Positions 3,074 through 22,340 of a stretch of 38,040 nt of DNA are shown in pieces; position 1 is the first letter of the stretch, and every line of letters starts with the position of its first letter. The stretch is taken from contig CAVRXN010000001.1 of NCBI GenBank assembly GCA_963725235.1, positions 1-38,040 of the forward strand, given 5' to 3'. The stretch is from an uncultured bacterium. Its GTDB lineage: Bacteria; Patescibacteriota; Minisyncoccia; UBA6257; 2-01-FULL-56-20. Both the position numbers and the translations under genes were made by a program. The notes under the pieces were generated by a model. It saw only the letters and a program-made list of their open reading frames with translations, was not told the DNA's origin and did no database searches.

Positions 3074-3077
3074 CATC

Positions 3078-3957
3078 ATGGACTTATCACAAAAAATAAT
3101 TCGAAACGAGCAGGAGGCTGAAAGTTTGCGGGAGAGGACTGATTTTCTGAACGCCCTCGAACTCTACGACGGCGACGACAAGGTGATGCATTTTTCCGAT
3201 GTTATCGCCGAATTGCGGGAGAGGGAAACGGATCGGCCAGCCAAAAGGTGTATTCCAAAATTCCTACGCTCGACGCGATGACGGACGGGTTCCGACCCGG
3301 GCAACTCGTCATCCTTTCCGCGCCGACGGGAAACGGCAAGACGGCGTTCCTCCAATCCCTTACAAGAACGTTTTCGGAAGACAAAATCCCGTGTCTCTGG
3401 TTTTCGTACGAAGTGCCGACCTTGGAGCTTGCCGAGCGTTACGGTGACGACGTCCCTCAGTTCGAGATTCCGAGAAAAAACGTGATCTCAAGCTTCGAAT
3501 GGCTCAAACTCCGTTCGCTCGAAGGGATAGCGAAATTCAACACACGGGTCATTTTCATCGACCACCTGCATTACCTGCTCGACATGAAGATGCTCTCCGG
3601 CGCGAACACATCGCTCGTGATCGGCGGGCTGATGCGTGAGCTGAAAAAATTCGCCATCGAAACGGAAACGACCATATTCCTCGTTTCTCATCTGGCGAAA
3701 ACGAAAATCGATGAAGTCCCTTCCATCTCCGACTTGCGGGATTCTTCCTTCGTGGCGCAGGAGTCGGACATCGTGATGGTGATGTGGCGACACCGGGAGA
3801 AAGACAGGGAAAGCCCGGCTACCGCTTCACGGATGAATCGCGCCTCATCGTGGACAAGAACCGCTGGAACGGCAAGCTGGGCTACGTCAAGATGATTTTC
3901 CGTGACGGTCGATTCACGGAGATGGCAACCACTCCCGAAGGAGCTCCGGAACTCTAA
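3078..3957 (+). pseudogene. DnaB-like / RecA-fold replicative helicase, two frame changes (about 3244 and 3816)
   Basis: Walker A SAPTGNGKT, Walker B VIFIDHL, and FLVSHLAKTK..DLRDSSFVAQESDIVMVMWR. The N-terminal part (3078 frame, ..FSDVIAELRERETDRPAK) joins KVYSKIPTLDAMTDGFRPGQL if the A4 run at 3243-3246 were A5. After about 3816 the other register reads GYRFTDESRLIVDKNRWNGKLGYVKMIFRDGRFTEMATTPEGAPEL and stops at TAA 3955-3957, 2 nt before the next ATG. Confidence 0.65.
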
Positions 3958-3959
3958 CC

Positions 3960-4163
3960 ATGATGAACGACATCAAGGATAGTTTGGAATATCGGCGGGA
4001 ACTGTTGGCATGGGAAGCTTTATATTTCCGCCTCATGCGGCTCTTAGAAAACAAGACTGGCGAGCCGTGGGAAACGGAAAGGCAAAACGTCGAATTGTGG
4101 TGGGCGGGGATGCGAAAAACGCTCGCGCAACTTTATCACCAGCCGGAACGGCCGCAATCATGA
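3960..4163 (+). CDS. hypothetical protein
   Basis: Track ORF, tightly packed after the helicase. Helical sequence (DSLEYRRELLAWEALYFRLMRLLENKTGEPWETERQNVELWWAGMRKTLAQLY). Confidence 0.5.
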   Translation: MMNDIKDSLEYRRELLAWEALYFRLMRLLENKTGEPWETERQNVELWWAGMRKTLAQLYHQPERPQS

Positions 4164-4342
4164 AAAAACACCCATCGAATAAATATCAAGTTGAGGATTG
4201 TGTCTTGCACGAAAAGCGATGCTCAAAGACGGAGTGCGAGCTGTGCGGCATACATTACTGCGACGACGTTTTATTCCGACGACTGTCCCGGGATGAACAG
4301 CGACAAGCCTGGCATATATCATCCATTGAAGAAGGAAACTGA
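4160..4342 (+). CDS. small Cys-rich (zinc-binding-like) protein
   Basis: ATG 4160 overlaps the previous TGA (ATGA). MKKHPSNKYQVEDCVLHEKRCSKTECELCGIHYCDD.. carries 5 Cys in 22 residues. This is track ORF 4010-4342 trimmed. Confidence 0.45.
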   Translation: MKKHPSNKYQVEDCVLHEKRCSKTECELCGIHYCDDVLFRRLSRDEQRQAWHISSIEEGN

Positions 4343-4354
4343 CATCCAACTTCC

Positions 4355-4752
4355 ATGATTAACAAACTCGAAAACAAATGGGGTTCGCCCGACGCGTACC
4401 CGAACCTCCTCATCCGCAACATGAAGAGGCTTGGAATCGCCTCAGCCGAGTTGGTCTTCGTGGGATACCTGACTCCGGCGGTTTCTCGTGGGAAGGGAAT
4501 TGCGTCGTTGCGTCGTCGCTCAAGGAGATGCATCGGGCGACGGGCCTCGCGACCGGCACGATCCACAAGGCAAAAAGTGGATTGGTCAGAAAAGGACTGG
4601 TTCAAATTCTGAACACACGGAATAAGGAGAGGACGAATACCTACAACCTCCTCCCACTTAGAGAAAGATTGGCGGAATTTGCCGAATGGAAACTTCCAGC
4701 AACCCCCGAGCCAAAGGCCGACGAGGTAGAGATCTGTCACCCCAACGCATGA
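4355..4752 (+). pseudogene. second replication-organizer-like wHTH protein, frame change near 4465-4480
   Basis: MINKLENKWGSPDAYPNLLIRNMKRLGIASAELVFVGYL (frame of 4355) continues in the frame of 4378 as ..SGGFSWEGNCVVASSLKEMHRATGLATGTIHKAKSGLVRKGLVQILNTRNKERTNTYNLLPL. The overall pattern parallels the 2303 gene. Confidence 0.5.
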
Positions 4753-4869
4753 TCGCCACAAACTCAACAACCATAGGGCTTTTGAGGGGCAACCCGGCAT
4801 GGGCGCAACAGGGCTGGACTACCCCCGACACCTGCGGCTTGATTGACCTGTAGCGAAATTGAGAAAGAT

Positions 4870-5748
4870 ATGAAAATCAAGGAAACATTTGAAAATTACC
4901 TCGCCTATCGCAAGGGGATGGGCATGGACGAGAAGACGCTCGTGAGCGACACGAAGATGCTCTACGGCTCCTTTTCGCACTCCATCTCCGAGCGGGAGCT
5001 TTCGTCCCTCACGCTGACTGATATCGCCGACCTCATGGAAGCAGGCAGGAGCCACGGGGAATTCGGACCGCAGCGGTCGGTGTCGACGCTCCGGAAGCTT
5101 TTCAGATATCTCGATGACTCGGGGATTCCCACTCCATTCGACTGGCGCGACATCGAGGTGCCTCATGTCCCTCGGAAGCCCAATGAATATCTCACGCAAG
5201 ACGAACTGAACCGCGTCCTTGAATCATTCGATATTACGAAACTGCATGGCCTGCGCACTCGCGCCCTCTGCGAAGTCCTCTTCGCATCCGGCATGAGAAT
5301 CTCGGAAGCCCTCTCGCTCGACAAGAATGACATAAATTGGGAAACCCAAGAGGCGAGTGTCGTGAACGCGAAGAACGATGACGAGCAAATGGTGTTCTTT
5401 ACTGATCGGTCGCTCATGTGGCTCAGGAGATATCTTGACGCAAGGACTGATACCGAGCCGTATCTCTTCACGGCGGGCAAAGGCAGGATGCCGCCCGTGA
5501 CCGCGCGATTTTATCTGCGGGCGCATACGAAGCAATTAGGCATCAAAAAGCACATCAAGAACCATATCTTCAGAAAATCATTCGTCACGCATCTGATTGA
5601 AAAGGGAGCCGACCTCGCTATGGTGAGCGACGCGGCTCGGCACCGTGACGTGAAGACGACCCTCCGCTTTTATGCTGCGGTGAACAAAGAGAGGTCAAAG
5701 GATGTCCATCAGCGCGATCATGAACGAAACGCTCAGAAAAATCGGTGA
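4870..5748 (+). CDS. tyrosine recombinase / integrase (XerC/XerD-like), apparently intact
   Basis: N-terminal SAM-like domain plus catalytic domain with GMRISEA (Arg), HIFRKSFVTHL (His-x-x-Arg), ARHRDVKTTLRFY (His, Tyr). Start moved to ATG 4870 (MKIKE..) by analogy with the paralog, which starts MKIKD. Confidence 0.85.
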   Translation: MKIKETFENYLAYRKGMGMDEKTLVSDTKMLYGSFSHSISERELSSLTLTDIADLMEAGRSHGEFGPQRSVSTLRKLFRYLDDSGIPTPFDWRDIEVPHVPRKPNEYLTQDELNRVLESFDITKLHGLRTRALCEVLFASGMRISEALSLDKNDINWETQEASVVNAKNDDEQMVFFTDRSLMWLRRYLDARTDTEPYLFTAGKGRMPPVTARFYLRAHTKQLGIKKHIKNHIFRKSFVTHLIEKGADLAMVSDAARHRDVKTTLRFYAAVNKERSKDVHQRDHERNAQKNR

Positions 5749-5763
5749 ACAAAAAATACAGCC

Positions 5764-6645
5764 ATGAAAATAAAGGATTCATTCGAACCGTTCTTCCTCT
5801 GGCAGGAAAAGATGGGCATGACCCCGAAGACCATCAAAAACGACCGGTATTATCTGCGGACCATTGCCAATTCAATCCAAGACATCGAAGTCATGGATTT
5901 GAAGAAGACCGACATATCGAAGGTCATCGCGGCGGCGAGCAAATATCGGCAAGTACGGACCGCAACGGGGCGTCGTCATGATGCGGAAGCTCCTCCGGTA
6001 TCTGCAAGGAGTCCGGCCAGCCGATCCCGTTCCGCTGGCAGGATGTGAGGATTCCGAGCGTATCCCAAAAGAAGGTGGAGTACCTCACGGAGGACGAGCT
6101 CGAAGCGGGTGCTTGGAGCCATCGACCTCACGATCCCTTCGGGACTTCGCACGAGGGTCTTGCTTGAAGTCCTCTATGCGACCGGCATGAGGATCGGAGA
6201 GGCGATTGCAATGGACAAAAATGATATCGATTGGGCTAACAAGGAGGCCATCGTCGTGAACGTGAAGTCCAAGGAACCGCAGAAGGTCTTCTTCACCGAC
6301 CGGAGCATCCACTGGCTCAAGCGGTATCTTGCGGGCAGGGAAGATAAGAATCCGGCGCTCTTTGTTTCGGGTACGATCCGTCTCACGCGGAATGGCTCGC
6401 AGAACTGCATGCGGCGCCATCTCAGGGGCATCATGACATCCCTCGGCATCAAAAAGAAAATCACGCATCATATCTTCAGGAAGACTTTCGTGACACATCT
6501 CCTTCAAAGGAAAGCAGATATCATGGCCGTGAAGGACTTGGCGAGGCACCGGAGCGAACGGACGACCCTGCTCAATTACGCGGGCGTCGACAAGGAGCGG
6601 TCGAAGGCCATCCATCGGGACATCATGAACGACTTGCTCGGATGA
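5764..6645 (+). pseudogene. paralogous tyrosine recombinase broken by three frame changes (about 5946, 6008, 6108)
   Basis: Track ORFs 5764-, 5978- and 6109-6645 are pieces of one integrase. The segment between about 6009 and 6108 is read from the third register and is not in the track. Reconstructed: ..KYGPQRGVVMMRKLLRYLQ / ESGQPIPFRWQDVRIPSVSQKKVEYLTEDELEA / VLGAIDLTIPSGLRTRVLLEVLYATGMRIGEAI..HHIFRKTFVTHL..ARHRSERTTLLNY. It is collinear with the 4870 gene. Confidence 0.75.
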
Positions 6646-6652
6646 GGATATC

Positions 6653-6680
6653 TTGACACATCGTTGCGGCCTGCTAGACT
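6653..6680 (+). promoter_or_regulatory. sigma70-like promoter candidate
   Basis: TTGACA (6653-6658), 16-nt spacer, TAGACT (6675-6680), just after the integrase stop. Confidence 0.4.
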
Positions 6681-6814
6681 GGACTCACAACCGAATATAT
6701 CAAGAGCGTGGAGATGCTAAGGGATTTGGCCCGATGCTCCACCCGCAACCAGCTGACTCATCGGCACGGTGCGAAATCCAACCCTTCATTGGGGTAGATA
6801 TCAAGTTTCCATAT

Positions 6815-6843
6815 CGACCGCTCTGAAGGCGGTTGTTTTTGTT
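6815..6843 (+). terminator. rho-independent terminator
   Basis: CGACCGC (6815-6821), loop TCTGAAG, GCGGTTG (6829-6835), then TTTTTGTT. Confidence 0.6.
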
Positions 6844-6872
6844 CTTTGACAAAATATGAAAGGAGATGGAAT

Positions 6873-7436
6873 ATGAAAAAACCTTTGTCCGTCCTCGACA
6901 ACGTATGGGCATTCGTTGGCGCAACATGCAAAGAAGAAAAGGAGTACTCGTTTGCAAGGGAAGAAGTTTTCGCAAAACTTGAAGCGTGCGCCGAGATTCT
7001 CCTTCGGTCACGTCTGCCCAGAAGCTGGGTGATTTCTCATCTGCCCGAGCTAAGGAGATTAGGCTTCGCCGCGCAATACACTGGAACCTACCGGGTGCTT
7101 TTCGGCCTTTACGACAAACTCACAGAAAAATATAACATCGTTTTCGAAGAGCGGTATTGCCGAGCGGCGCAGGCATTCATTGCGAGCGTGCCACGATACG
7201 AAAAGGAAGATCCGAATGCTTTGAGTTATAAGATCCACATAGCATCGTACTCTACCGATGATTTTTCGTTGGGAACTGTTGCCAGGGAAAAAATGAGGGA
7301 TATTGAATTGTTTCGCGATCTGGAAGCCGCGGGATATAATCCCGTGGGAGAGGTGTTTGATAAGGGTTCGCTATTTGGAAAATCCCGCTACCTTCGGATT
7401 TACGCCCGTTGGGCAAAAAAACGAAAAAGTAGATAG
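6873..7436 (+). CDS. hypothetical protein
   Basis: Track ORF 6846-7436 trimmed to ATG 6873, preceded by AAAGGAG. Soluble protein, no family recognised. A terminator follows. Confidence 0.6.
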   Translation: MKKPLSVLDNVWAFVGATCKEEKEYSFAREEVFAKLEACAEILLRSRLPRSWVISHLPELRRLGFAAQYTGTYRVLFGLYDKLTEKYNIVFEERYCRAAQAFIASVPRYEKEDPNALSYKIHIASYSTDDFSLGTVAREKMRDIELFRDLEAAGYNPVGEVFDKGSLFGKSRYLRIYARWAKKRKSR

Positions 7437-7446
7437 CGGTAGATTC

Positions 7447-7477
7447 AGGGAGACTAACTATAGCCTCCCTTTTTATT
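7447..7477 (+). terminator. rho-independent terminator
   Basis: AGGGAG (7447-7452), 12-nt loop, CTCCCT (7465-7470), then TTTTATT. Confidence 0.6.
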
Positions 7478-7615
7478 AGCCTTGGCAAGCAGGCGTGGAA
7501 TCACAGTGAGCAGTGGATCAATTGGGATGAGGGTGCCTTGTAAGGGCATTTTGGGGGCTGTGTACGTCCCCCTCGATGGGAACGACAAGATCGAGAAAGG
7601 TGAAATTGTAGGGGC

Positions 7616-7644
7616 TTGCGTTGTTTTGAGAAAAAAGCTATAAT
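7616..7644 (+). promoter_or_regulatory. sigma70-like promoter candidate
   Basis: TTGCGT (7616-7621), 17-nt spacer, TATAAT (7639-7644). Confidence 0.5.
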
Positions 7645-7649
7645 ATCAA

Positions 7650-7798
7650 ATATAAATTAATATGAGTCCTAACCTGCGCAAGCAGCAGGGACGTGTAAAT
7701 TCGCTTCTACGTAAAAAGCCCCTCGTCAGGGCTACGTAGAAGCGTCACATCTCGAAAGGGGTGTGGGTCGAAAGGCAACCTGATTGGGGGCTTTTTGT
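7650..7798 (+). ncRNA. candidate structured RNA / 5' leader upstream of the glycan locus
   Basis: Three GNRA-capped hairpins downstream of the promoter. (a) GUCC-UAAC-CUGC[GCAA]GCAG-CAG-GGAC. (b) GCUUCUACGU..AGCCC[CUCGUCA]GGGCU-ACGUAGAAGC. (c) CACAUCUC[GAAA]GGGGUGUG. AAAAAGCCCC inside hairpin (b) is also complementary to GGGGGCUUUUU at 7782-7792, which allows mutually exclusive folds. No known class recognised. Confidence 0.35.
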
Positions 7799-7924
7799 AT
7801 GAGTAAAATAACAAGCTGGTTTCTCGTTAAAATAGGATGGCGTTGCCCCGAATGCGGCGGTACTCTTTTTACGTGGTCATATGGGAAGCGAAAGTGCAAT
7901 CGGGACGGGCGGAAAAGGGTGTAA
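7799..7924 (+). CDS. small zinc-ribbon-like ORF (41 aa)
   Basis: ATG 7799 to TAA 7922-7924: MSKITSWFLVKIGWRCPECGGTLFTWSYGKRKCNRDGRKRV, with CPEC plus one distal Cys. Below the track cut-off. Confidence 0.3.
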   Translation: MSKITSWFLVKIGWRCPECGGTLFTWSYGKRKCNRDGRKRV

Positions 7925-7937
7925 GGCATAAAATCTA

Positions 7938-9441
7938 TTGATATGTTGGGCCGCTGGACAAATTAACTCAAATAGTGTAGGATATGCCAGTTCATTGAAG
8001 GGGCGCATTTCGGGAATACGAGCTTCTAGCAGAAGCCGTTTTTTATTTTTATATAAAAGATATATCAACCATACATCAAGCCATCCTTTGCATAAACAGA
8101 GCGCAAAAAAGATACTCAACGCTTTAGAGGTCGTCATTTTGCTCGCCATATTGTGCTCGCTTATCGTCCTTTTCACCTTCAACTGGCATGCGGCGCTCGT
8201 CCTCATCATTAGCATAGTCACCATTCTTTATTTCCTAGACCTGATATTTAATCTGGCCATTATTTCAAAAGCTCTATCGTTCCTACGGAGATAACAGTTT
8301 CGAAAGAAGAAATCGCTGCAAGAAAATCCTGGCCTAGCTACACCATCTTTGCCCCCTCTATAAAGAAGCGCAGGTATTGCCCCAATTTATTGAGGCAATG
8401 AACAATTTGGATTATCCGAAGAACAAGCTTGAGATATTGCTTATTTTGGAAGAAGACGATGAGGAGACAATCGACGTGGCGCGGACAATGAACCTGCCCG
8501 ATTCATTCAGGACTATCGTCGTCCCACATTCGCTGCCGAAAACAAAGCCAAAAGCGTGCAATCACGCATTGATGCATACAACCGGAACTTATGCCGTCAT
8601 CTTCGATGCCGAAGATATCCCCGCGCCGGATCAGCTCAAGAAAGCGGTCGTGGCATTCGAGAAAACGGATGAGAAAACGATCTGTCTACAGGCAAAATTG
8701 AATTATTATAATCCGCATCAGAATTTGCTGACGCGACTTTTTACATTGGAGTATTCTCTTTGGTTTGAAGTGATATTGACGGGTTTGCAATCATTCAATG
8801 GGCCGATCCCACTCGGCGGCACCTCCAATCATTTCAGGGCGAAATATCTCCACGAACTGAAGGGTGGGATCCATTCAACGTTACCGAAGATGCCGACCTC
8901 GGCATGAGGATTTCGAAAGGGCGGCTACAAGACTGCCATTATTGATTCCGTAACGATGGAAGAGGCGAATAGCCAGCTGAAAAATTGGTTCAAGCAGCGG
9001 TCTCGGTGGATCAAGGGATACATGCAAACCTATCTTGTCCATATGCAGACCGCGTCGGATTTCTCATTTTCGGATTTTGCCATGTTCCAAGTCGTCGTCG
9101 GCGGGAAAATCGTGTCGGCTCTCATCAATCCGTTCATGTGGCTTATGACCATAGCATTTTTCGCGTCCCGCGCAACTTTCGGTGGATTCATCGGTTCACT
9201 CTATGTTGGCCCAATCCTTTACATTGGAGGATTCACACTCATCATCGGCAATTTTATCTACGCATATATTTTAATGATCGGCGTTGCGGAGCGGAAACAA
9301 TGGAGTTTGGTGAAGTACGGATTACTGTCGCCATTTTATTGGCTGATTATCAGTTTCGCCGCATACTACGGTTTGCGCGGAGCTATTGGTACGTCCGTTC
9401 CATTGGAACAAAACACAACATGGCCTGCATTTCAAAACTAA
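7938..9441 (+). pseudogene. membrane-embedded processive GT2 synthase (BcsA/PgaC/IcaA-type, COG1215-like) broken by four frame changes
   Basis: Track ORFs 7938-, 8377- and 8956-9441 are one gene. The segments 8267-8356 and 8865-8921 are read from other registers. Reconstructed: ..IISK/SSIVPTEITVSKEEIAARKSWPSYTIFAP/LYKEAQVLPQFIEAMNNLDYP..IFDAEDIP..QAKLNYYN..GGTSNHFR..LKG/WDPFNVTEDADLGMRISKG/GYKTAIIDSVTMEEA..QRSRWIKG, plus C-terminal TM helices. Motifs DxD, TED and QxxRW are present. Shifts lie at the A-run 8267-8270, the C5 run 8352-8356, the G-run near 8864, and an extra base near 8922. The N-terminal start is unresolved. Confidence 0.75.
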
Positions 9442-9453
9442 GCCGATATCGAC

Positions 9454-12400
9454 ATGATATCAGAAGCAAAAAAACAATTGATCGATAAGAAGATCAAAAT
9501 ATTGTCCATCGTCGCTCTGGTCGCGGCGAGCATCGTCACGTGGTGGTTCTCGTATCGAACATGGCTTGGTGACCACCTACAACGACGCGATGTCACATTT
9601 GAATATCGCGCGATCCGTGGTCGATGGCAAGCAGCCGGGCCTCGCGCAGCTTGGCAGTGTTTGGTTGCCCCTCAATCATATCTTGAGCTGACGCTGATTT
9701 GGAACAACTGGGCGTGGCACTCCGGTTTTGCAGGTAGTTTTTTCTCAATGCTCGCCTATATCTTTTCCGCGATAGGAGTTTATAAGATAGTGAAAGAACT
9801 GACGAATAATTCATGGGCTTCCTTTCTCGGAGGATTGGTCTTCGCCCTGAATCCGAATATCCTTTATCTACAAACAACCCCGCTTACCGAACCGCTGTAT
9901 CTAGTGCTTGTTATCACTTCGATTTTCTTTTTGGTGAGATTCATGAAGACTGACAATCTCAAATACCTTCTCATTTCAGGTGTATTTGGTTTCCTGCAAG
10001 TGCTCGCTCGATATGATGGCTGGTTCGTGGTGTTCGTCGAGGGGCTGGTCATTATTTATCATCTGTGGTTTGCGAAAAAGGCTTCGCTGCAGGAAACAAT
10101 TGCGAAGTTTATGCTTTTCGCGATGCCCGTCATATTCGCGGCGGCATTATGGTTGGTATGGAACGCCTTGATTTTCGGAAGCCCTCTCTATTTCTTGCTC
10201 GGCCCCTATTCCGCGCACGCCCAACAAGCCACTATCCAAAGTGCCAGTGGTCTCATCACTAAGGGTAGTTGGCATTTCTCGCTGCTGGCTTTTTGGTACG
10301 CCGCCGTAGCGAACGTAGGACTCTTCGCAATTATACTGGCCGTCATCGGAACCGCCGCGTTCTTTTTTATAAAAAATAAAGACGCGAATTTCACGATGAA
10401 GCTCCTCGTTTTCATCCTGCTTATATCTCCAATCCTGTTCAACATCATCGCTCTCTATTTGGGTTTTTCCATATTAAATCTTCCGCAGTTGCATTGGAAT
10501 CCCTCACAAACGGCTGCGGGCCAATGGTTCAATGTCCGTTATGGAATCATGGCGCTCCCGCTCGTCGCCGTGTTCATTGGCCTCCTCGCTGATCTCCTCA
10601 AGAAAAAGATGTTTATCGTGCTTCTTGCGGTTCTCGTCGTCGCGCAATCATTCTTGATCTATCATCAAGGCCTCATCACCATCACCGACGGAACCATCGG
10701 TTCGAGCGCGTTCGTGGACAATGATGTCGCGCAGGTGCTACAAGACAATGTCCAGCCCGGGCAAAATGTCCTGATCTCCCTCTCGTTCTTCAATGCGGTG
10801 ATTTTCAAGAGCAATCTCCCGCTCGATGATTTCATTTACGAAGGCGTGAGCAACGAGTGGGATGCGGCCTTGGCGCAACCGCAGAAATACGCTACATGGC
10901 TTGTAATGGCGAACGGCAACGTGGGAGATCCCCTCTATACACAATTTCATGAAAATCAAGACGATGCGTTCCTCAAGAATTATAAACTTTTCTTTGCCGG
11001 TGCCAACGCGAATATTTATGAGCTCAGAAATACAGACGAGCTTTTTGTTTATGCCAATGGAACGGGCCTCACGCTAGGAGGAAGCGACCAGCCGTTTGTC
11101 GTAAAAGGCGTCAATTCGTACGATCTGGCTTATAAATCGGAAGACGCTATCGATGCCACATTAAAGAATTTGAGCAGCATCGGCGTGAATACGGTGCGTT
11201 TTTGGATGTTTGGGGACGGCAATTCCAACGGATTCCAACCGGCGGCGGGCATTATGAACGAGACGAGGTTCGAGAACGCCGATTATCTTATCGCCGACGC
11301 AAAGAAATATAACATCCGTCTCATCCCGGTTCTCGTGAATAATTGGACCGATTACGGAGGGGAACAGCAGTATCTGAAATGGGTCGGCCAAAACCCGAGC
11401 AACCAGGACGCCTTCTATACCAATCCGCAGGCCATCGCGCTTTTCGAAAATTACATCAATCATGTCATCACGCGGAAAAACACGATAACCGGCATAGCCT
11501 ACAACGACGATCCGACGATCATGGCGTGGGAAGTCGTAAACGAGCCGCGCTGGTCGGCTGACGACACCGGAGCGTTTGAGCAATGGTTTTCCACGATTGC
11601 CAATTACATCAGGCAGAAGGATTCCAATCACATTATTACCATGGAAACCGATACGACCTCCTTAAATCAAAACGGGACTTTTGCGGTCAATGACCTCTGC
11701 GCCACTTTATCCGTCGATTTGTGCACCGCCCATCTTTATCTTTACGATGGCAACGGAAATCTCATGTATGCCACACCGAATGAAATCACGAGCAATGTAC
11801 AGCAATATCTCAAGGACGCCGATGCGGATGGCAAGCCTTTTATTATGGGTGAAGTCGGAATTTCGAAAACAACTTCGCCATTCGGAGAGGCACCGCTCAC
11901 GATGCTAAAAAATATCGTGGATACCAATAGTAGTAGTTCAGGGATATTGATTTGGAACTGGTCTGATACCCCAGACGCTTCTTATGGTTTTTCACCGGAT
12001 GGCACGAACGGGCAATACACCCTCGCGGATTTGAGCAATGTGCTTGGGGGGATAGAACCGTCCACCGTTTATCTTGTACCGGAAAATTCAAACGAAGGAG
12101 GTTATGATGTCAGCGTTCCGGGAATGGGGCCAACCACAACCTCGACCATAGCGACGAGCAGCGATGAGACCGCGCCACTGTCCGTAGCCACTGCGACAAC
12201 CATTGCCATCACTCCCACGATAACGGCGACTACGACAATCGTTCTTCCGACGGTTACTTCTGAGGCGACGAAGACCGCAACAGTGGCTCCAGTGCCCACC
12301 GAACTTTCACTCCCATATTCGACAAGTGATTTTAATGCGGCTGATTGGGGAGATGGATGGGGCGCTTCGGGTGTAACGAACGGCGTCTTGACCGTCGGTT

Positions 12401-12873
12401 CAAATGCGCAAAACACGAGCGGTGGCATATTCTTGAACGACTCGAATTCTTGGCAGGATTATCTCATTACGGCGAACATCGACTGGGTCAAGGGAGAATT
12501 GTTTACCCTGATTGCGCGGCGAAGCGACAGCAATAATTATCTTGAATGCGTGTTCTCGTACAACGATAATGTATCCGAACATGTCGATATCAATCGGGTA
12601 TGGAACAACCAGAGCGAATCCATGGCCGAGGAGGGAACTATGTCAAATAATGAAAGCAATCCTATTTCAACCAATGATATGGAAGTTTCCATGCAGGTGC
12701 ATGGGAATGTAGTCGAATGCGGTATCAACAATGCCATGATTACCAACAACATCAGCATTGGCATGCCACCCATATTATTGAGCGGTGGCATTGGTTTCAG
12801 TACGTGGGATCCACAGGAAAACAATAGTGAGATCATCGTAAAAAATCTCTCTGTCACATATCCGCAATCATGA
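9454..12873 (+). CDS. tripartite protein: GT-C (PMT/ArnT-like, about 12 TM) + GH5 mannanase-like domain + Thr-rich linker + ConA/LamG-like C-terminal domain
   Basis: The N-terminal roughly 530 aa is polytopic membrane. The GH5 signatures are GVNTVRFWMFGDG, NNWTDYGG, IMAWEVVNEPR (acid/base Glu) and PFIMGEVG (nucleophile Glu). The linker is TTTSTIATSS..TPTITATTTIVLPTVTSEATKTATVAP. The C-terminal domain ends GGIGFSTWDPQENNSEIIVKNL. Codons about 40-78 appear to be read out of register (see findings). Confidence 0.8.
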   Translation: MISEAKKQLIDKKIKILSIVALVAASIVTWWFSYRTWLGDHLQRRDVTFEYRAIRGRWQAAGPRAAWQCLVAPQSYLELTLIWNNWAWHSGFAGSFFSMLAYIFSAIGVYKIVKELTNNSWASFLGGLVFALNPNILYLQTTPLTEPLYLVLVITSIFFLVRFMKTDNLKYLLISGVFGFLQVLARYDGWFVVFVEGLVIIYHLWFAKKASLQETIAKFMLFAMPVIFAAALWLVWNALIFGSPLYFLLGPYSAHAQQATIQSASGLITKGSWHFSLLAFWYAAVANVGLFAIILAVIGTAAFFFIKNKDANFTMKLLVFILLISPILFNIIALYLGFSILNLPQLHWNPSQTAAGQWFNVRYGIMALPLVAVFIGLLADLLKKKMFIVLLAVLVVAQSFLIYHQGLITITDGTIGSSAFVDNDVAQVLQDNVQPGQNVLISLSFFNAVIFKSNLPLDDFIYEGVSNEWDAALAQPQKYATWLVMANGNVGDPLYTQFHENQDDAFLKNYKLFFAGANANIYELRNTDELFVYANGTGLTLGGSDQPFVVKGVNSYDLAYKSEDAIDATLKNLSSIGVNTVRFWMFGDGNSNGFQPAAGIMNETRFENADYLIADAKKYNIRLIPVLVNNWTDYGGEQQYLKWVGQNPSNQDAFYTNPQAIALFENYINHVITRKNTITGIAYNDDPTIMAWEVVNEPRWSADDTGAFEQWFSTIANYIRQKDSNHIITMETDTTSLNQNGTFAVNDLCATLSVDLCTAHLYLYDGNGNLMYATPNEITSNVQQYLKDADADGKPFIMGEVGISKTTSPFGEAPLTMLKNIVDTNSSSSGILIWNWSDTPDASYGFSPDGTNGQYTLADLSNVLGGIEPSTVYLVPENSNEGGYDVSVPGMGPTTTSTIATSSDETAPLSVATATTIAITPTITATTTIVLPTVTSEATKTATVAPVPTELSLPYSTSDFNAADWGDGWGASGVTNGVLTVGSNAQNTSGGIFLNDSNSWQDYLITANIDWVKGELFTLIARRSDSNNYLECVFSYNDNVSEHVDINRVWNNQSESMAEEGTMSNNESNPISTNDMEVSMQVHGNVVECGINNAMITNNISIGMPPILLSGGIGFSTWDPQENNSEIIVKNLSVTYPQS

Positions 12874-13625
12874 GCAATCCATATCTTTCAATCGTCGTCC
12901 CAGCCTACAACGAAGCGGAGCGCATTCCTACTGCTTTGCTCGATATGGACAAGCACTTGCGGGCCGTCGATTTTTCATACGAAATAATCGTCGTCAATGA
13001 CGGGTCGAGCGACAAGACCGTTGAAGTCGTCCGTGGCTTCATAGGCCGCGTTCAAAATCTCAAGATTTTAGATCTCGGCAAGAATCAGGGCAAGGGCGCT
13101 GCCGTTCGTGCCGGTATGCTCGATGCGAGGGGAGCCATCCGCATTTTCACTGATGCCGATAATTCAACATCCATCGATCAATTTGAAAAAATGATGCCGT
13201 TTTTTGAGAAAGGATATGACGTTGTTATTGGTTCACGCACTATTAAAGGAGCTATCCTTGAGCCAGCGGAACCATGGTATCGAAGAATCGCTGGAAGAGG
13301 ATTAAACCTCGTCGTGCAGATGCTTTTGCTTCCCGGCATTTGGGATACGCAATGCGGCTTCAAGGCGTTCACGGCTGAAGCTGCCGAGCGCATATTCTCG
13401 AATTCAAAAATCATCGGTTGGGGATTCGATGTCGAGGCGTTGTCGCTTGCAAGAATTATGGGATACCGCATTAAAGAGATTCCCGTACGTTGGGTAAATG
13501 ATGAACGTACCCATGTGACGTCTTCGGCGGGATTCAAATTCTTACGCGATGTCAGTAAGGTGCGATGGCGGCTATGGACAGGTAATTATCCCAAAACCAA
13601 TTATGAAAAAAGAAACGCACAGTAA
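12870..13625 (+). CDS. polyprenyl-phosphate glycosyltransferase (GT2; DPM1 / ALG5 / GtrB-like)
   Basis: LSIVVPAYNEAERI, YEIIVVNDGSSDKT, KNQGKGAAVRAG, FTDADNS, VVIGSR, DTQCGFKAF and WGFDVEAL. The start overlaps the upstream stop (ATGA). Confidence 0.85.
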   Translation: MSNPYLSIVVPAYNEAERIPTALLDMDKHLRAVDFSYEIIVVNDGSSDKTVEVVRGFIGRVQNLKILDLGKNQGKGAAVRAGMLDARGAIRIFTDADNSTSIDQFEKMMPFFEKGYDVVIGSRTIKGAILEPAEPWYRRIAGRGLNLVVQMLLLPGIWDTQCGFKAFTAEAAERIFSNSKIIGWGFDVEALSLARIMGYRIKEIPVRWVNDERTHVTSSAGFKFLRDVSKVRWRLWTGNYPKTNYEKRNAQ

Positions 13626-14088
13626 GAAGAAGATTGTGGTTGCCGTAAGCGGGGGATTCGATCCGATCCATGTCGGCCATGTCCGTATGTTCGAGCGAGC
13701 CAAGGCGATGGGCGACACGCTCATCGTGATTTTGAACAATGACAACTGGCTTCGTGCGAAAAAGCAGCATATTTTCATGCCGGAAGATCAGCGTAAGGAA
13801 GTCATAGAAGCGCTTCGCGTCGTGGATGAGGTGGTGCTCACGAAGCATGGCGTGAACCCGACAGATATGAGCGTGTGTGCCGAACTCGCCGAGATCAAGC
13901 CCGACATTTTTGCGAACGGTGGTGATCGAAAGCTAGACAATATTCCCGAAGTGCCGGTCTGCGAGGAGATCGGCTGTCAGATGATCTTCAATATGGGCGA
14001 CGGGGGAAAGGTACAGTCGAGTTCGTGGCTGCTCAAAAAATATGTGGAAGCCGTGACGGAGAAACATTCTCATAAAAATCGAGAGTAA
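13603..14088 (+). CDS. cytidylyltransferase-family nucleotidyltransferase (RfaE domain II / TagD-like)
   Basis: VAVSGGFDPIHVGHV (HxGH-type motif), GDTLIVILNNDNWL, RVVDEVV, KPDIFANGGDR and KVQSSSWLLKK. Track ORF trimmed to ATG 13603. Confidence 0.75.
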   Translation: MKKETHSKKKIVVAVSGGFDPIHVGHVRMFERAKAMGDTLIVILNNDNWLRAKKQHIFMPEDQRKEVIEALRVVDEVVLTKHGVNPTDMSVCAELAEIKPDIFANGGDRKLDNIPEVPVCEEIGCQMIFNMGDGGKVQSSSWLLKKYVEAVTEKHSHKNRE

Positions 14089-14092
14089 AATA

Positions 14093-15376
14093 ATGAAGAA
14101 AAATAAATCACAAGGAGTTGCTATTATTGGCCTTGGTTACGTCGGCTTGCCGTTGGCTCTTTTGGCTAGCCGCAAAGGATACAGCGTCATCGGCATCGAT
14201 TTAGATAAGCGGAAGGTTGCCGCTATTAACGCCAAGGAGTCGTTACTTAGCGATGCAGCGATTGCCAAGCAACTCAAAAAGTCATCACTCACAGCGACCG
14301 ACGATTTCGATGTCCTCGAAAATGTCGAAACGATCATCGTATGCGTTCCGACGCCGGTCGACGAAAAACACCATCCCGACCTTCGTGCCATAGAAGGAGC
14401 AAGTTCAGCAATTGCAAAAAATTTGAAACGCGGTCAACTTATCATACTCGAATCAACGGTGAATCCAGGCGTATGCGATGAGATTGTTATCCCAATCCTT
14501 GAAAAGTCCGGCCTCACGGCGGGAAAAGATTTTTATGTCGCGCATTGTCCGGAGCGCATCAATCCTGGCGACTCGAAGTGGAACGTGGAAAATATCCCGC
14601 GCGTCGTCGGGGGATTGAATAAGGAGAGCTTGAAGCGAGCGGCGAAGTTCTATCGTTCAATTATTAACGCTCCCGTAAAGGAGATGGGTTCACTCAAGGA
14701 AGCGGAAGCCGTAAAGATTGTCGAGAATTCGTTCCGCGATGTGAATATTGCATTCGTGAACGAACTCGCGATGTCATTCGCAAAGCTTGGCATCGATGTT
14801 GTGAACGTAATTGATGGCGCGGCGACCAAACCTTTCGCTTTTATGCCGCATTATCCAGGCGCGGGAGTTGGCGGCCACTGCATCCCGGTCGATCCGTATT
14901 ATTTGATCGACTACGCAAAAAAGAACGGCTTCCACCATGAATTGATGAAGATTTCTCGGCATGTGAATGAAGGGATGCCGCAGTTCACTGTGAAGATTTT
15001 AGAAAAAGCATTGAAGGCGAAAGGCAAGAAGCTCAAAGGATCGAAAATCGCCGTCCTTGGCATTTCATACAAGCCCAACGTGGGGGATTGCCGCGAGAGT
15101 CCGTCACTCAAGATCATTGGACTCTTGCAAAAGAAAGGCGTTATAGTCCATGCCTATGATCCCTATGTCCCTGAGAAATCCAATGTAGCGAATTTAAACG
15201 CGGCACTCTCCGGCGCAGATGCCGCGATCATCGCAACTGCGCATCGAGAATTCAGCACGTTGATGCCGAAAGATTTTCTCAAAAACAATGTTCCTATCGT
15301 GATCGACGGGAGAAATTGTTTACCGAAGGATAACTTCCGAAAAGCCGGAATGACCTATTGGGGCATCGGAAGATAA
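14093..15376 (+). CDS. NDP-sugar 6-dehydrogenase (UDP-glucose/GDP-mannose dehydrogenase family; resembles the UDP-N-acetylhexosamine branch WbpA/TviB/WecC)
   Basis: Rossmann N-terminus VAIIGLGYVGLPLA, the catalytic Cys motif GGHCIPVDPYYL, and the C-terminal UDP-binding domain ISYKPNVGDCRESP. Confidence 0.9.
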   Translation: MKKNKSQGVAIIGLGYVGLPLALLASRKGYSVIGIDLDKRKVAAINAKESLLSDAAIAKQLKKSSLTATDDFDVLENVETIIVCVPTPVDEKHHPDLRAIEGASSAIAKNLKRGQLIILESTVNPGVCDEIVIPILEKSGLTAGKDFYVAHCPERINPGDSKWNVENIPRVVGGLNKESLKRAAKFYRSIINAPVKEMGSLKEAEAVKIVENSFRDVNIAFVNELAMSFAKLGIDVVNVIDGAATKPFAFMPHYPGAGVGGHCIPVDPYYLIDYAKKNGFHHELMKISRHVNEGMPQFTVKILEKALKAKGKKLKGSKIAVLGISYKPNVGDCRESPSLKIIGLLQKKGVIVHAYDPYVPEKSNVANLNAALSGADAAIIATAHREFSTLMPKDFLKNNVPIVIDGRNCLPKDNFRKAGMTYWGIGR

Positions 15377-15400
15377 GACTTCACGATTGCAACTTATGAG

Positions 15401-16747
15401 ATGACCAACAAATCTGACCTTCGTCGATTCGCAGAGCTGGCAGTATTGATGGCGATACTCTTGGTTTTGCTAGGAAAGATATTTTTCGGACAGGAGAACG
15501 GACTGACTGCTTTATTTATCTATGGACTTTTGGTTACGTCGATCGTTTTGCTTACGTTCATTTGTGCATTTTTGTATTATGTAGACCCCTATGAAACGGC
15601 GGTTATTAAAGATGTCCCTGGGGGAAAGTATTTTGTGAGTTGTATGGTTGCCGTAAAAGACGAAGAAGAGAATATTGCGCGTTGCATTGATTCAATGCTC
15701 AATCAAACATATCAGAGGAAAGAGGTGATTGTTGTTAATGATGCAAGCACTGATGGTACGCTCGCGATTCTGAAAGAATATGAGCGAGCTGGAAAGATCA
15801 TCCTGATCGATCTCAAAGTAAATGGCGGCAAAAAGCGGGCATTATCGCGTGCTATGGAGATTGCCAAAGGCGATATTTTTGCCCACACCGATAGCGATTC
15901 CGTATGGGCTCCAGACGCTATTGAAAAAATTGAAAAGATATTCGAATCAGATCCAGATATCGGTGCTGTGAGCGGTCATGGCCGGGCGTTGAACGGCGAC
16001 CATAATTTTTTGACAAAAATTCAGGATTCTTGGATGGAGGGCCAATTTTCCATGCGAAAAGCTTTCGAAAGCGTGTTCAATTCAGTCACGTGCGTATCCG
16101 GTCCGCTCGCCGTTTTTAGGAAGGAAGCCATCTTTAACCTTATTCCGGCATGGGAGAATGATTATTTCTTGGGTCAAGAATTTAAGTTTGCCACCGATCG
16201 GACGATGACGGGATTTGTCTTGGGGCATAAAACCGTTAGCGATAAATTAAAGAAGAAACACAGCGATTCTCATTTCGTCAAGCTCGTGGATTATCCTGCG
16301 AGAGATTGGAAGGTGGTCTATTCGAAGGCGGCGCGTTCGTGGACAATCGTGCCCGATACATTTGCGCGTCTGATGAAGCAACAAGTAAGGTGGAAAAAAA
16401 GTTTTATCAGGAACGTTTTTTTCACTGGATTTTTCTATTGGAAAAAACCACTCCCCGTCGCTTTCGTTTATTATGCACATATTCTGTTCGTCGTATGCGG
16501 CCCATTCATCGTCATCCGTCATTTGATCTACCTGCCACTCCAGGGAGATTTCCTTGCCGCAGTCCTTTATATAGCGGGTATTTGTTTCATCGGCTATATG
16601 TTCGGTCTGGCGTATAAGTTGGAAAATCCCGATAGCGATCGTTGGATCTATCGTCCATTCATGAGCCTCATGTCCACGTTCGTATTCTCGTGGTTATTAT
16701 ACTATTCCGCCGCAACCATCAAAAAAATGACATGGCACCGAGGATAA
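15401..16747 (+). CDS. class I hyaluronan-synthase (HasA)-like processive GT2
   Basis: Collinear with my recollection of streptococcal HasA over the whole length. Matching blocks: VKDEEENIARCIDSMLNQTY..VIVVNDASTDGT, NGGKKRAL, HTDSDSVW, SGHGRALN, CVSGPLAVFRKEA, ATDRTMT (HasA has GDDRCLT), QQVRWKKSF (QxxRW), C-terminal TM helices, and ATIKKMTWHRG (HasA has TIKNTEWGTR). Confidence 0.8.
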   Translation: MTNKSDLRRFAELAVLMAILLVLLGKIFFGQENGLTALFIYGLLVTSIVLLTFICAFLYYVDPYETAVIKDVPGGKYFVSCMVAVKDEEENIARCIDSMLNQTYQRKEVIVVNDASTDGTLAILKEYERAGKIILIDLKVNGGKKRALSRAMEIAKGDIFAHTDSDSVWAPDAIEKIEKIFESDPDIGAVSGHGRALNGDHNFLTKIQDSWMEGQFSMRKAFESVFNSVTCVSGPLAVFRKEAIFNLIPAWENDYFLGQEFKFATDRTMTGFVLGHKTVSDKLKKKHSDSHFVKLVDYPARDWKVVYSKAARSWTIVPDTFARLMKQQVRWKKSFIRNVFFTGFFYWKKPLPVAFVYYAHILFVVCGPFIVIRHLIYLPLQGDFLAAVLYIAGICFIGYMFGLAYKLENPDSDRWIYRPFMSLMSTFVFSWLLYYSAATIKKMTWHRG

Positions 16748-19700
16748 AATTTACGTTCAAAGAGGGCGTTGTTCTTGCACTTGTGATTGCATCGTTCTTT
16801 TTGGTTCTCGGTAAGTACTTATTTCCATCGATAGCTAACTATCTGGTTATTCGAAAAACCGAGGCTGCGTTATCCGTAAAGTTGCAACCAGCGCAAAATT
16901 GTCCGAGCGATGAGGTTACTATTAAGTTAAGCGGTGGAGTTATTTGCAGGGATCAGGCTGCTTCTTCAACACTCCTAACAATATTTGATACTTATCAGCT
17001 CGATCCCAATGGGAAGGAGCAAATGTTCTCCTTTATAAAGACCGACGATGCCTCTCAGACGTTGATGATAGCGAATGATTACTTGAATAACGAATATTAT
17101 GTGGATCGGTATAATCCCGTGGCAATTACTAATTTAACGTGGGATGAGGATCCCTATAATCAGGAATATTGGCGCTTTATCTTTTATAGCTTACGTGACG
17201 AAGAGTATCTCCTTCAAGCGTGGCAAGAGACGGGCAATCCGGCATATGAGCAGAAATTCACGGAGATTCTACAAAGTTTTTTAACGACGGGGACAAACCA
17301 ACCGTTGGCATGGAGTGATCCGCATGCGGTTGCTTTTCGGACCATGGTTCTCGTGGATGCATGGTGGGAATTGCGGGAATATAATTCATTGCCTGTTGAA
17401 TTAAGCAACCAGATATTGCAATCGCTTGAACAAAACGGCCAGTATCTCGCTGACCCCAGTAATTATGAGCCAGCTTATAATCATGCCATCAATGAAGCGG
17501 GCGCCTTGTTTTTGCTTTCCGTTAATTTTCCGGACTTGCCAAACGCCAATCAATGGCAAACGATATCCGAAGATAGGTTGACGAGCAGCTTGGACACTGC
17601 CGTGGATAGCGATGGTGTTTTGCTCGAGAATTCATCGTATTACCATTTTTATGCTCTCGAAAAATATTGGGAGATTTTTCAATACGCAAAAGCGCAGGGC
17701 ATCATATTCGCTGCCGATGTTCAGGATAAACTTCAAAAAATGATAGCATATGCAACGTATGTTCTGCAGCCCGACGATCAAGTCCCGTTGTTAGGAGCTT
17801 CTATAGAAAGGAAGGTTAATTTTGCAGGCGTCGATAGAGATATCGCATTGGCGAATCCGAATTTCGAATATGTTTTGACGCAAGGAAAAAAAGGAACACA
17901 ACCGTCGCAATTAAGTGTTCATTATCAGACCGCCGGAGAGACCATTATGCGTTCGGGATGGGGAAGTGGCACCGATTTTGCAAATCAAACCCAATTGATT
18001 TTTAATGTTGGGCCATTTCGGACCAATCACAGCCAACTCGACGGACTCGCATTTAGCTTATACGGCCAAGGAATTGCCTTAATGCCGGGATCAGGATTAT
18101 ATACTTACGTTTCGAGTACGGCCAAAGATTATTTCTGGGGAACATCTTCCCATAATACGGTCGTTGTTGACGGAGGCAACCAAAGTGAAGGTAGTCCGAC
18201 TGAGGGAACATTTAAAGAGGGCGATGGATACACCTATGAAACTGGCGAATCCAATCTTTATAATGGCGTGACGCATGACCGTGCGATAGCCCTGCTCGGA
18301 CAAAACCTCGTTCTCGTCGTCGATAATTTGAAATCCTTGAATGCTCATACCTATGACCAAATGTTCCATCTTTTTCCGGGCGCGCAGATAGGGCAGAATG
18401 GTCTGGACATCACCGGCTACAGTGCAAGTAGCAGTAATGAGCAGATAACGATACATCAGCTTATTACAAATGGCGTAAACGTTAGCACGACCATCAATCA
18501 AATGAATCCGCTCGATGGCGTTTGCTCCGAACAATATGGAGTGCTCGTTCCGTGCTATTCTGTCGATTATCGACAGATAGGGGAAAATGCAGAATTCGTA
18601 ACGCTTTTGGAAATTGGTAAGCCAAATTCTGATCTAAAGGTGCAACTATCATCGGATGGCAGTCAGGTTAATATCTCCGAAGGCGGAGAAAGTTATAATG
18701 TCGCTATTGGAGATATTCCTCAGAACGAACAGCCCGTGAAGGTTTTAAATAACCAAACGATGACCCAGACGGGAGATGAGGCGATTTCTGAGTTCGCCGA
18801 TCCGAGTTCGTGGGAAAAAATAAGTCAGAGAATTAATAACGAAGGAACGATAGCATCGATAAACGCTTCCAGCGGTCCTATTCTGGCTCTAACAAGCCCC
18901 AGAAACGGATCTTGGGTCGAAGCAGTAAAAGAAATTCCGTTGAATCTGACAGATCAGAATATCAATCTTGAAATGAATATTCAGAATTTTTCAAACCTTA
19001 AAAACGCTGAACTGCTTTTGTCCACCAATGACTGGACGGGATCTGCAGCTATACGTTTGAATGATTTTTATTCTGAATCTAGTTCTAATCAGTGGACTGA
19101 TATTAGCCTTGGAAAAGGTCAATTAAGAGACGTAGGAGGAGAGTGGGTCATAAGTGGCACAGGTTTTGACTGGTCGAATATCGATCAAGTGGCATTTAAG
19201 ATCAACTCATCCCCAGGCGCTGCTTCAACTTTGCAAGTGAATGATTTTTCATTAATCCCTGGGCAATCGCAGGGAACGGTTGTCGTCGTCTTTGATAACG
19301 GTTATTCGTCGATTTTGCCAGCCGCAAAAATTATGCAGAACCTCGGACTTAAAGGTAACGTCGGCGCGATTAGTGGTTATCTCTCAAGGGATGCCGCCGG
19401 GCGTCTTAGTGTGTCAGATTTGCAGGATCTTCAGAATAACTATGGATGGGATGTAATCAATGAATCATGGTATCATTACGACCCTATCACCGAATATTAC
19501 GATACAAATAATCTGGCCGGTTTGAGTCAGGATATTTTGAAAGGGGCGGAGTATTTAACAGAGAATGGTATCAATACAGACCAGAATTGGTATATCTATC
19601 CCGACGGTGTTACGAATTCATCCATTGAAGCAGTGGTTGGTCAATATTATAAATTTGCCCGTACGACTTCTGCTGCTCCTGAAGTGTATCCTTTCGGAGA

Positions 19701-20055: not shown

Positions 20056-20063
20056 TACATCCA

Positions 20064-22283: not shown

Positions 22284-22340
22284 TGAGGCCAGCATCCTCA
22301 TACGTCATGTTAATAGCCGATTTTGTAATATAATTAGGGG

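Follow-up and report, generated by a model that had tools for sequence, protein, structure and literature searches.

Closest described systems

In synthase-dependent polysaccharide systems (BcsA-BcsB/BcsZ, PgaCD/PgaB, Pel/PelA, Psl/PslG, alginate/AlgL), a processive, inverting glycosyltransferase of family GT2, with the motifs D, D, TED and QxxRW, is found beside an extracytoplasmic beta-glycan hydrolase. In lipid-linked systems (GtrA/GtrB/Gtr-GT-C, CsbB/GtcA/YfhO, ArnC/ArnT, Ppm1/Pmt, GacI/GacL), a GT2 of the DPM1/GtrB/ArnC kind is combined with a GT-C enzyme in which an Asp starts the first outer loop. We report here a locus that resembles both. It lies on a 38,040-nucleotide (nt) stretch of DNA (contig CAVRXN010000001.1 of assembly GCA_963725235.1, from an uncultured member of the Patescibacteriota), and this whole stretch is called 'the window' hereafter. 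Its central gene encodes a protein of 1139 amino acids (aa) in which a GT-C glycosyltransferase is fused to a GH5 domain and a ConA-like C-terminal domain (CTD), and it stands between a processive GT2 gene and a small GT2 gene (Table 1).

The locus departs from both groups of systems. Compared with the synthase-dependent ones, the hydrolase of the cassette is GH5_7 or GH113, not GH8, and is covalently fused to the GT-C; a polyprenyl-phosphate-sugar GT2 is added as an integral fourth module, and no BcsB or PilZ was identified. Compared with the lipid-linked ones, the GT-C carries a glycoside hydrolase and is linked or fused to a processive synthase, and no GtrA/GtcA-like flippase was identified. 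Some homologues of the processive GT2 of the cassette are named 'glycosyltransferase XagB' by the Joint Genome Institute (JGI). In Xanthomonas, the product of the xag cluster is an uncharacterised biofilm polysaccharide, and the beta-1,4-mannanase ManA is implicated in the dispersal of the biofilm (PMC3528676, PMC3609779). The xagABCD genes and ManA follow the same synthase-plus-mannanase logic as the cassette, a likeness that is suggestive only: the Xanthomonas mannanase is separate, oppositely regulated and secreted, and no GT-C is described there. A builder and a cutter also meet on one polypeptide in the cyclic beta-1,2-glucan synthase Cgs, a membrane protein whose glycan-building and cleaving or transglycosylating domains set product length. 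Unlike the fusion studied here, Cgs draws on unrelated families (GT84, GH94-like), acts in the cytoplasm, and has neither a GT-C nor a lipid-linked donor.

Each part of the cassette is thus already known, as are the synthase-hydrolase logic and the GT2-GT-C logic; what is new is the four-module unit with a hydrolase fused to the GT-C. The first-pass annotation of the window knew of no characterised GT-C::GH5 fusion. Our literature searches found none either, and no characterised GT2/GT-C/mannanase system. The reading that we favour, with a probability that we put at about even, is that the fusion is a subunit of a conserved four-module envelope machine made of processive GT2, small GT2, GT-C and beta-mannanase. 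The cassette probably builds and trims a surface polysaccharide. The genomes of Patescibacteria (the Candidate Phyla Radiation, CPR) are tiny and their envelopes poorly understood, and the cassette is a testable candidate for a surface glycan that these episymbionts may use for host attachment. If the favoured reading is true, the cassette would be one of few cases of beta-mannan synthesis in bacteria, and would provide a natural glycosyltransferase and glycoside hydrolase acting as one membrane polypeptide.

Module identities and their linkage across phyla

The data establish the identities of the four modules, their linkage across phyla, and the outward placement of the GT-C loops, the GH5 domain and the ConA-like domain. 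The open reading frame (ORF) of 1139 aa and its ATGA overlap with the next ORF were confirmed, and the three domain identities proposed in the first-pass annotation (GT-C, GH5 mannanase, ConA-like) were upheld by Pfam, sequence matches in the PDB and Foldseek. That annotation also had the class of the downstream GT2 right. It overlooked a pair of frameshifts within the ORF, and the upstream processive GT2, which is broken in the window and is the most conserved partner.

For the N-terminal module, Pfam matched PMT_2 to the window protein with 33.6 bits (cut-off 26.1). A PDB sequence search with this part returned nothing useful, and structure prediction with Foldseek was needed. The AlphaFold2 (AF2) model of residues 1-531 of an intact orthologue, P0002, reached a predicted local distance difference test score (pLDDT) of 82 and a predicted TM-score (pTM) of 0.83, and contained 11 long helices. 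Its top 41 Foldseek matches in the PDB were all GT-C enzymes, with TMq up to 0.58 (STT3, ArnT, ALG12, DPY19, PglB, AglB, Pmt4, ALG9, AftA/B, EmbA/B), and the GT-C identity of the N-terminus therefore stands. The alpha/beta domain that follows the transmembrane (TM) core is also present in GT-C-only paralogues, whose match extends to query residue ~525-530. Within the motif YNDAMSH, Asp44 (P0002 numbering) shows no variation in 17 of 17 sequences and reaches at least 90% conservation among 32 relatives. The catalytic motifs of the GT-C, too, are unchanged throughout 32 sequences with identities to the window protein down to 32%.

The short loops rich in K/R all fall on one side of the membrane, and YNDAMSH, LQxTPLTE, RYDGW and GPYSAHAQQ all on the opposite side. 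This implies an N-in/C-out protein in which everything after TM11 is extracytoplasmic; an extracytoplasmic GH5 had been anticipated in the first pass, and the topology check indeed gave 11 TM helices with the N-terminus inside and the GH5 and ConA-like domains outside. Use of a polyprenyl-phosphate-sugar donor by the GT-C on the outer face is indirectly supported, by the adjacency or fusion to a DPM1/GtrB-like GT2 and by the outward conserved motifs.

The GH5 domain was easily missed: on the whole 1139-aa protein, Pfam gave PMT_2 only, and neither Pfam nor NCBIfam reported GH5. Scanning aa 521-915 alone recovered it (PF00150, 58 bits, E = 1.4e-15, cut-off 23.5). The 16 PDB sequence matches of the domain were, without exception, beta-mannanases, beta-mannosidases or a chain also named Man5A. 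At their head stood the GH5_7 mannanases tomato LeMAN4 (1RH9, 3.5e-48) and soybean GmMAN19-1 (9M20, 1.5e-46), and they included those of Thermotoga petrophila (3PZ9) and Trichoderma reesei (1QNO), with E values of 1e-24 to 3.5e-48 over the catalytic domain. The motifs quoted in the first pass were found where it placed them (WEVVNEPR at aa 692-699, MGEVG at aa 798-802, NNWTDYGG at aa 629-636). In the alignment with 1RH9, WEVVNEPR pairs with WELINEPR and MGEVG with IAEFG; the acid/base of the NEP motif and the nucleophilic Glu are shared with these enzymes. The catalytic set R582, N696, E697, H760, Y762, E800 and W834 is invariant in 32 sequences, which includes both catalytic Glu residues. GmMAN19-1 is a GH5_7 enzyme for whose structure LeMAN4 served as the search model, and enzymes of this subfamily also transglycosylate (PMC12512182). 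The assignment of the domain as a GH5_7-type predicted beta-mannanase holds. Known GH5_7 mannanases are soluble and secreted, whereas here the domain extends an 11-TM glycosyltransferase at its C-terminus.

Degradation is the classic function of GH5_7 mannanases, and NCBI names relatives of the fusion 'cellulase family glycosylhydrolase'. This would fit a foraging role, in which the GH5 domain breaks down exogenous plant, fungal or host beta-mannan, either to feed on it or to reach the host surface, the GT-C being mainly a membrane anchor. We regard this as very unlikely: the invariance of the GT-C motifs described above is unexpected for a mere anchor, the GH5 domain consistently occurs in linkage or fusion with biosynthetic GT2s, and the loci inspected showed no genes for sugar uptake or catabolism next to the cassette.

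At the C-terminus, neither Pfam nor a PDB sequence search gave a useful match, and the assignment comes from structure: the AF2 model (pLDDT 91.5) had 477 Foldseek matches at E <= 1e-3, among them the GH43 C-terminal domain, GH16 lichenases, VIP36, CBM66 and legume lectins (TMq 0.6-0.68). The predicted fold is that of a ConA-like domain, as the first pass had it. A word-indexed homologue search with the CTD returned zero sequences, and an exhaustive profile search 777 representative proteins. In this family (P0121-P0269 among members), Pfam scans gave no model above threshold for the domain, and one relative had a sub-threshold match to 3keto-disac_hyd. The domain is usually C-terminal to CE4 deacetylases, often in tandem, in one or two copies; it also follows a TM anchor with a Thr/Pro-rich linker, or a PMT_2 GT-C (P0222). 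GH16-like catalysis was considered for the CTD and rejected, as the alignment, judged by reading the sequence, contains no ExDxxE motif.

These Thr/Pro-rich stretches bear on another possibility, protein O-glycosylation, in which the GT-C and the Ppm1-like GT2 would mannosylate Ser/Thr-rich linkers, including that of the fusion itself, while the GH5 domain would have a separate membrane-anchored role. It is consistent with the PMT_2 match, with Pmt4 and Pmt1/2 among the fold matches, with the 46% S/T/P of the fusion's linker, and with the many CTD proteins in which a TM anchor precedes a long Thr/Pro-rich linker. We nevertheless hold it to be unlikely. The majority of the family, at ~860 aa, is devoid of such a linker, and the fusion partners described below, a processive synthase and mannanases of two families, point to a polysaccharide substrate.

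The small GT2 gave 94 bits with PF00535 and has a DAD motif at aa 95-97. Its best PDB match was the Pyrococcus Dol-P-Man synthase 5mlz (1.4e-18, aa 6-229), followed by ArnC and GtrB, which argues for the DPM1/Ppm1/GtrB type predicted in the first pass. The best NCBIfam models (PgfS, Dol-P-hexose transferase, ArnC, PpgS) scored 52-70 bits against cut-offs of 370-529; as these scores are below the equivalog cut-offs, the class is supported, and a specific orthology or sugar is not. A TM helix such as those of GtrB, ArnC and archaeal DPMS was not predicted (maximal 19-aa hydropathy 1.31). The protein resembles the TM-less catalytic domains of DPM1/Ppm1, and its relatives fuse this domain to membrane partners.

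The upstream GT2 has BcsA as its best PDB matches and CelA as its best NCBIfam match. In the orthologue of locus L001, DAED is at position 191, TED at 284 and QRSRW at 321, and the segments 22-78 and 346-453 are hydrophobic; the motifs of a processive synthase (D, D, TED and QxxRW flanked by TM segments) are thus all in place, and the window copy also has them, split between frames. Homologues number thousands. With 52-59% identity across phyla, this synthase is the most conserved component of the cassette, and in most loci having flanking sequence it is encoded immediately upstream of the GT-C gene (L001, L002, L004, L005, L007, L010, L011, L016, L021, L030, L061, L086 and L089-L092).

The GT-C family itself was found at 562 or more loci in species-representative genomes, mostly of Patescibacteria. 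A database survey found the GT-C::GH5 architecture to be common: it is shared by ~76 protein clusters, with lengths of ~820-915 aa, from Patescibacteria, Dormibacterota and Actinomycetota. The CTD is present as well in five relatives, which are 1116-1129 aa long. Outside the Patescibacteria, GH5 fusions were found in Dormibacterota (L007, L061) and Actinomycetota (L016, L021), and in the cultured Symbioplanes lichenis TISTR 2343 (L030), an actinomycete with the same cassette, in which genetics and biochemistry are feasible.

The modules are joined in various ways. The processive GT2 is fused to the GT-C in P0087 and P0095, and both are preceded by the small GT2 on one polypeptide in P0088 and P0090. 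A smallGT2::GT-C::GH5 fusion is seen in P0078, and stands beside a processive GT2 in L016, L021, L030 and L061; conversely, in L007 and L011 a smallGT2::GT2proc fusion (GT2proc being the processive GT2) stands beside GT-C::GH5. In P0115, the arrangement is GT2proc::GT-C::GH113. So many fusion combinations of four modules indicate one functional unit. GH113 is a separate family among the beta-mannanases listed by CAZy (PMC9032380). With GH5 or GH113 in one slot, two different mannanase families share a position, which we take as the strongest sequence-level argument for beta-mannosidic bonds in the predicted glycan.

At some loci, two GT-C paralogues or GT-C::GH5 genes lie beside one processive GT2 (L005 at 3052-4650 and 5929-8547, L077 at 5653-8866, and L047). 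The side-by-side paralogues hint at several decorating activities on one polymer.

A possible pathway for the surface polysaccharide

Under the favoured reading, the upstream BcsA-like GT2 would polymerise and export a chain of the beta-1,4-mannan type from a nucleotide sugar. The small GT2 would put a sugar onto polyprenyl phosphate at the cytoplasmic face; once flipped, the lipid-linked sugar would be moved by the GT-C to the nascent chain or to an anchor outside the membrane, a step akin to glycosylation of the Gtr/CsbB-YfhO type. This second arm would more likely provide a side sugar, priming or anchoring than form the linkage cleaved by GH5. From its tether beside the exit site, the GH5_7 domain would cleave, release or transglycosylate the chain, like BcsZ, PslG, PgaB, PelA and AlgL in other synthase-dependent systems, and the ConA-like module would keep the enzyme attached to the glycan or to the surface of the cell.

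Stereochemistry guides the choice of partners. Processive GT2s invert, making beta-linked chains from alpha-linked nucleotide sugars. The products of DPM1-type GT2s are beta-linked polyprenyl-phosphate sugars, which GT-Cs invert to alpha-linkages, and both GH5_7 and GH113 cut beta-1,4-mannosidic bonds. The processive GT2, whose product is beta-linked, is therefore the natural substrate source for either hydrolase. In the first-pass annotation, the GT-C was the builder: it would polymerise or extend a mannan-type glycan or lipoglycan from the polyprenyl-phosphate sugar of the downstream GT2, and GH5 would set its length. This model accounts for the adjacency of the GT-C and the small GT2 and for their fusion, together with GH5, in some lineages (P0078, L030), and it is established that mycobacterial GT-Cs of the Mpt/Emb type polymerise from lipid-linked donors. 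We consider it improbable, since beta-linked donors of the DPM1 type would be inverted to alpha products where the hydrolases need beta-1,4 bonds, and since it leaves the strongly conserved and often fused processive GT2 unexplained. For a GT-C that builds the very glycan cut by GH5, stereochemistry is thus unfavourable, and the processive GT2 is the better partner.

Several points weigh against the four-module reading. The substrate of the synthase is not readable from its sequence, and its best matches are cellulose synthases; the name 'XagB' carried by some homologues is a label of the JGI pipeline, and orthology to Xanthomonas XagB is putative. Three loci with GT-C::GH5 (L008, L009, L047) show no processive GT2 within the available flanks, and no GDP-mannose pathway genes lie beside the cassette in the loci examined. 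Both the synthase gene and the GT-C loop are out of frame in places in the window, and its copy of the cassette may be nonfunctional. The nature of the polymer, of the lipid-linked sugar and of the acceptor of the GT-C is inferred.

A bolder version of the four-module reading, which we find rather unlikely, is a new synthase-dependent pathway. The GT-C would be the obligatory extracytoplasmic partner of the processive GT2, and GH5_7 or GH113 would act mainly as a transglycosylase that grafts, branches or anchors beta-mannan to the envelope, defining the surface coat of many Patescibacteria.

Frame changes in the window copy and neighbouring genes

The window was compared with an independent short-read contig (L003, Logan ERR11523662), to which positions 10363-22872 are 99.992% identical, with one indel. 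The match gives independent support to the GH5 domain, the linker, the CTD and the small GT2. The single difference affects the ORF of the CE4 deacetylase with its CTD, which is 739 aa long in the window (20064-22283) and is split into 572 and 163 aa in L003 (9702-11922). The doubt whether the fusion might be an assembly artefact is ruled out, as the ~76 clusters with the same architecture come from independent assemblies. The ATGA coupling, in turn, is not a shared feature: orthologous loci have a 10-nt gap (L001) or an intervening ORF (L004).

Upstream of 10363, the window copy is disturbed. In an alignment with 31 homologues, aa ~37-78 of the window protein had only 17-21% identity to the five closest homologues, which are near-identical to each other there. 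Read in the +1 frame, positions ~9562-9687 give GLVTTYNDAMSHLNIARSVVDGKQPGLAQLGSVWLPLNHIL, the family consensus of the first loop after TM1. Taking one base out at 9561/9562 and putting one in at 9685-9687 perfectly restores the register with P0002 and P0006; a 1-nt insertion at ~9561/9562 and a 1-nt deletion at ~9685-9687 would thus explain the scrambled loop. The fusion ORF stays open because the 41 out-of-frame codons happen to contain no stop. As a consequence of the frameshift pair, the GT-C as written has no invariant Asp loop: the Asp typical of the family is encoded solely in the +1 frame.

The processive GT2 has at least five frame changes, at ~8270, ~8350, ~8840, ~8915 and ~9360. When the intact 471-aa orthologue (L001 8579-9991) was compared by tblastn, it matched with 76% identity in window frames 2>1>3>2>3>1; DAED (8605) and QRSRW (8995) share one frame, and TED (8883) is in another. 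Overall, at least 11 single-base indels were counted between 3.2 and 9.7 kb, compared with a single difference across the 12.5 kb that L003 confirms. This cluster suggests an unpolished or poorly supported segment of the assembly, or local decay.

For the synthase and the GT-C loop, we regard assembly errors as quite probable, because conservation of the protein within each frame is high and every lesion is an indel, with zero in-frame nonsense codons. Possible, with a lower probability, is that the indels are real in the window copy, the synthase and GT-C genes being recent pseudogenes beside an integrated mobile element; the membrane-tethered GH5 and ConA-like part alone could still function. 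Real decay would agree with frame changes that hit the DnaB-like gene, the second integrase, the GT2 and the 5' end of the GT-C alike, with the two integrases and replication genes directly upstream, and with the fact that no independent contig covers the stretch. It is less easily reconciled with a per-frame identity to the orthologue that is above that of the intact domains, with many indels unaccompanied by in-frame nonsense codons, an unusual pattern for natural decay, or with the near-complete agreement of the adjacent 12.5 kb with the short-read contig; moreover, that contig stops at 10363, suggesting weak support for the upstream stretch. An exact look-up of the 1139-aa product and an exact 39-mer scan of metagenome contigs yielded no independent contig over the frameshifted stretch, and a protein-guided metagenome scan found only relatives of at most 62% identity over the full length, plus one 33-residue fragment at 91%.

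Table 1. Features of the window, in order of position; coordinates are window positions
Feature	Coordinates	Strand	Remarks
Phage RepO-like ORF	2303-2692		Sub-threshold
DnaB_C helicase	3248-3895		Frame 2>1 near 3870-3900
Frame-changed genes	3248-9690		DnaB-like gene, second integrase, GT2 (5 changes), fusion 5' end (2 changes)
Tyrosine recombinase	4843-5748
Second recombinase (integrase)	5764-6048 plus 6109-6645		Frame-broken; frames 0>1>2>0 over 5764-6645
LOOT RNA (RF03000)	7666-7780	+	Rfam, 62.3 bits, gathering threshold 46.4
Processive BcsA/'XagB'-like GT2 synthase	8085-9445	+	Frame-broken; directly upstream of fusion
Fusion ORF	9454-12873	+	1139 aa; GT-C :: GH5_7 :: Thr/Pro-rich linker :: ConA-like domain
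GT-C transmembrane core	9454-10683	+	aa 1 to ~410, 11 TM helices; PMT_2, AF2 model, Foldseek
Out-of-frame segment in fusion ORF	9562-9687	+	+1 frame is first extracytoplasmic loop with invariant Asp (YNDAMSH)
GT-C motif LQTTPLTE	9868-9891	+	Conserved, extracytoplasmic
GT-C motif RYDGW	10009-10023	+	Conserved, extracytoplasmic
GT-C motif GPYSAHAQQ	10201-10227	+	Conserved, extracytoplasmic
Juxtamembrane soluble alpha/beta domain of GT-C module	10684-11043	+	aa ~411-530; DSSP of AF2 model
GH5_7-type retaining endo-beta-mannanase domain (predicted)	11056-12063	+	aa ~535-870; PF00150, PDB matches
Acid/base E697 in WEVVNEPR	11527-11550	+
Nucleophile E800 in MGEVG	11845-11859	+
Ser/Thr/Pro-rich linker	12064-12303	+	46% S+T+P; poorly conserved among orthologues
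ConA-like beta-sandwich (CTD)	12304-12870	+	aa ~951-1139; AF2 and Foldseek
Small GT2 ORF	12870-13625	+	251 aa; overlaps fusion ORF 3' end by ATGA
Cytidylyltransferase-like protein	13549-14088	+	Overlaps small GT2 3' end; NCBIfam RfaE domain II and glycerol-3-phosphate cytidylyltransferase, both sub-cut-off
Nucleotide-sugar dehydrogenase	14093-15376	+
Hyaluronan/chitin/NodC-type GT2 synthase	15401-16747	+
Heparinase II/III-like protein	16642-20055	+	1137 aa
CE4 deacetylase with ConA-like CTD	20064-22283	+	Pfam Polysacc_deac_1
Paralogous ConA-like CTD	21705-22271	+	C-terminus of the CE4 protein, same cluster; 36% identity, tblastn
Predicted surface lectin-like protein	23060-24079	-	339 aa; N-terminal TM, Thr-rich stretch, Laminin_G_3 (ConA-like)
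ORF with Fic motif	25711-26349	+	HPFxDGNGRTAR
ORF with Fic motif	30417-31475	+	HPFxDGNGRTAR

Genes of the mobile-element type lie just upstream of the glycan cluster, at window positions 2303-6645 (Table 1). The LOOT RNA is located between them and the processive GT2; a role as a conserved operon leader was considered and rejected, since the RNA is absent from 10 related loci.

Downstream of the cassette, a second set of 'builder plus cutter' glycan genes occupies positions 14093-22283 on the + strand. Its content is suggestive of an acidic polysaccharide served by a lyase and a deacetylase of its own. Further along, the Fic motifs of two ORFs were read in their translations as HPFVDGNGRTARL (first ORF) and HPFTDGNGRTARAL (second ORF).

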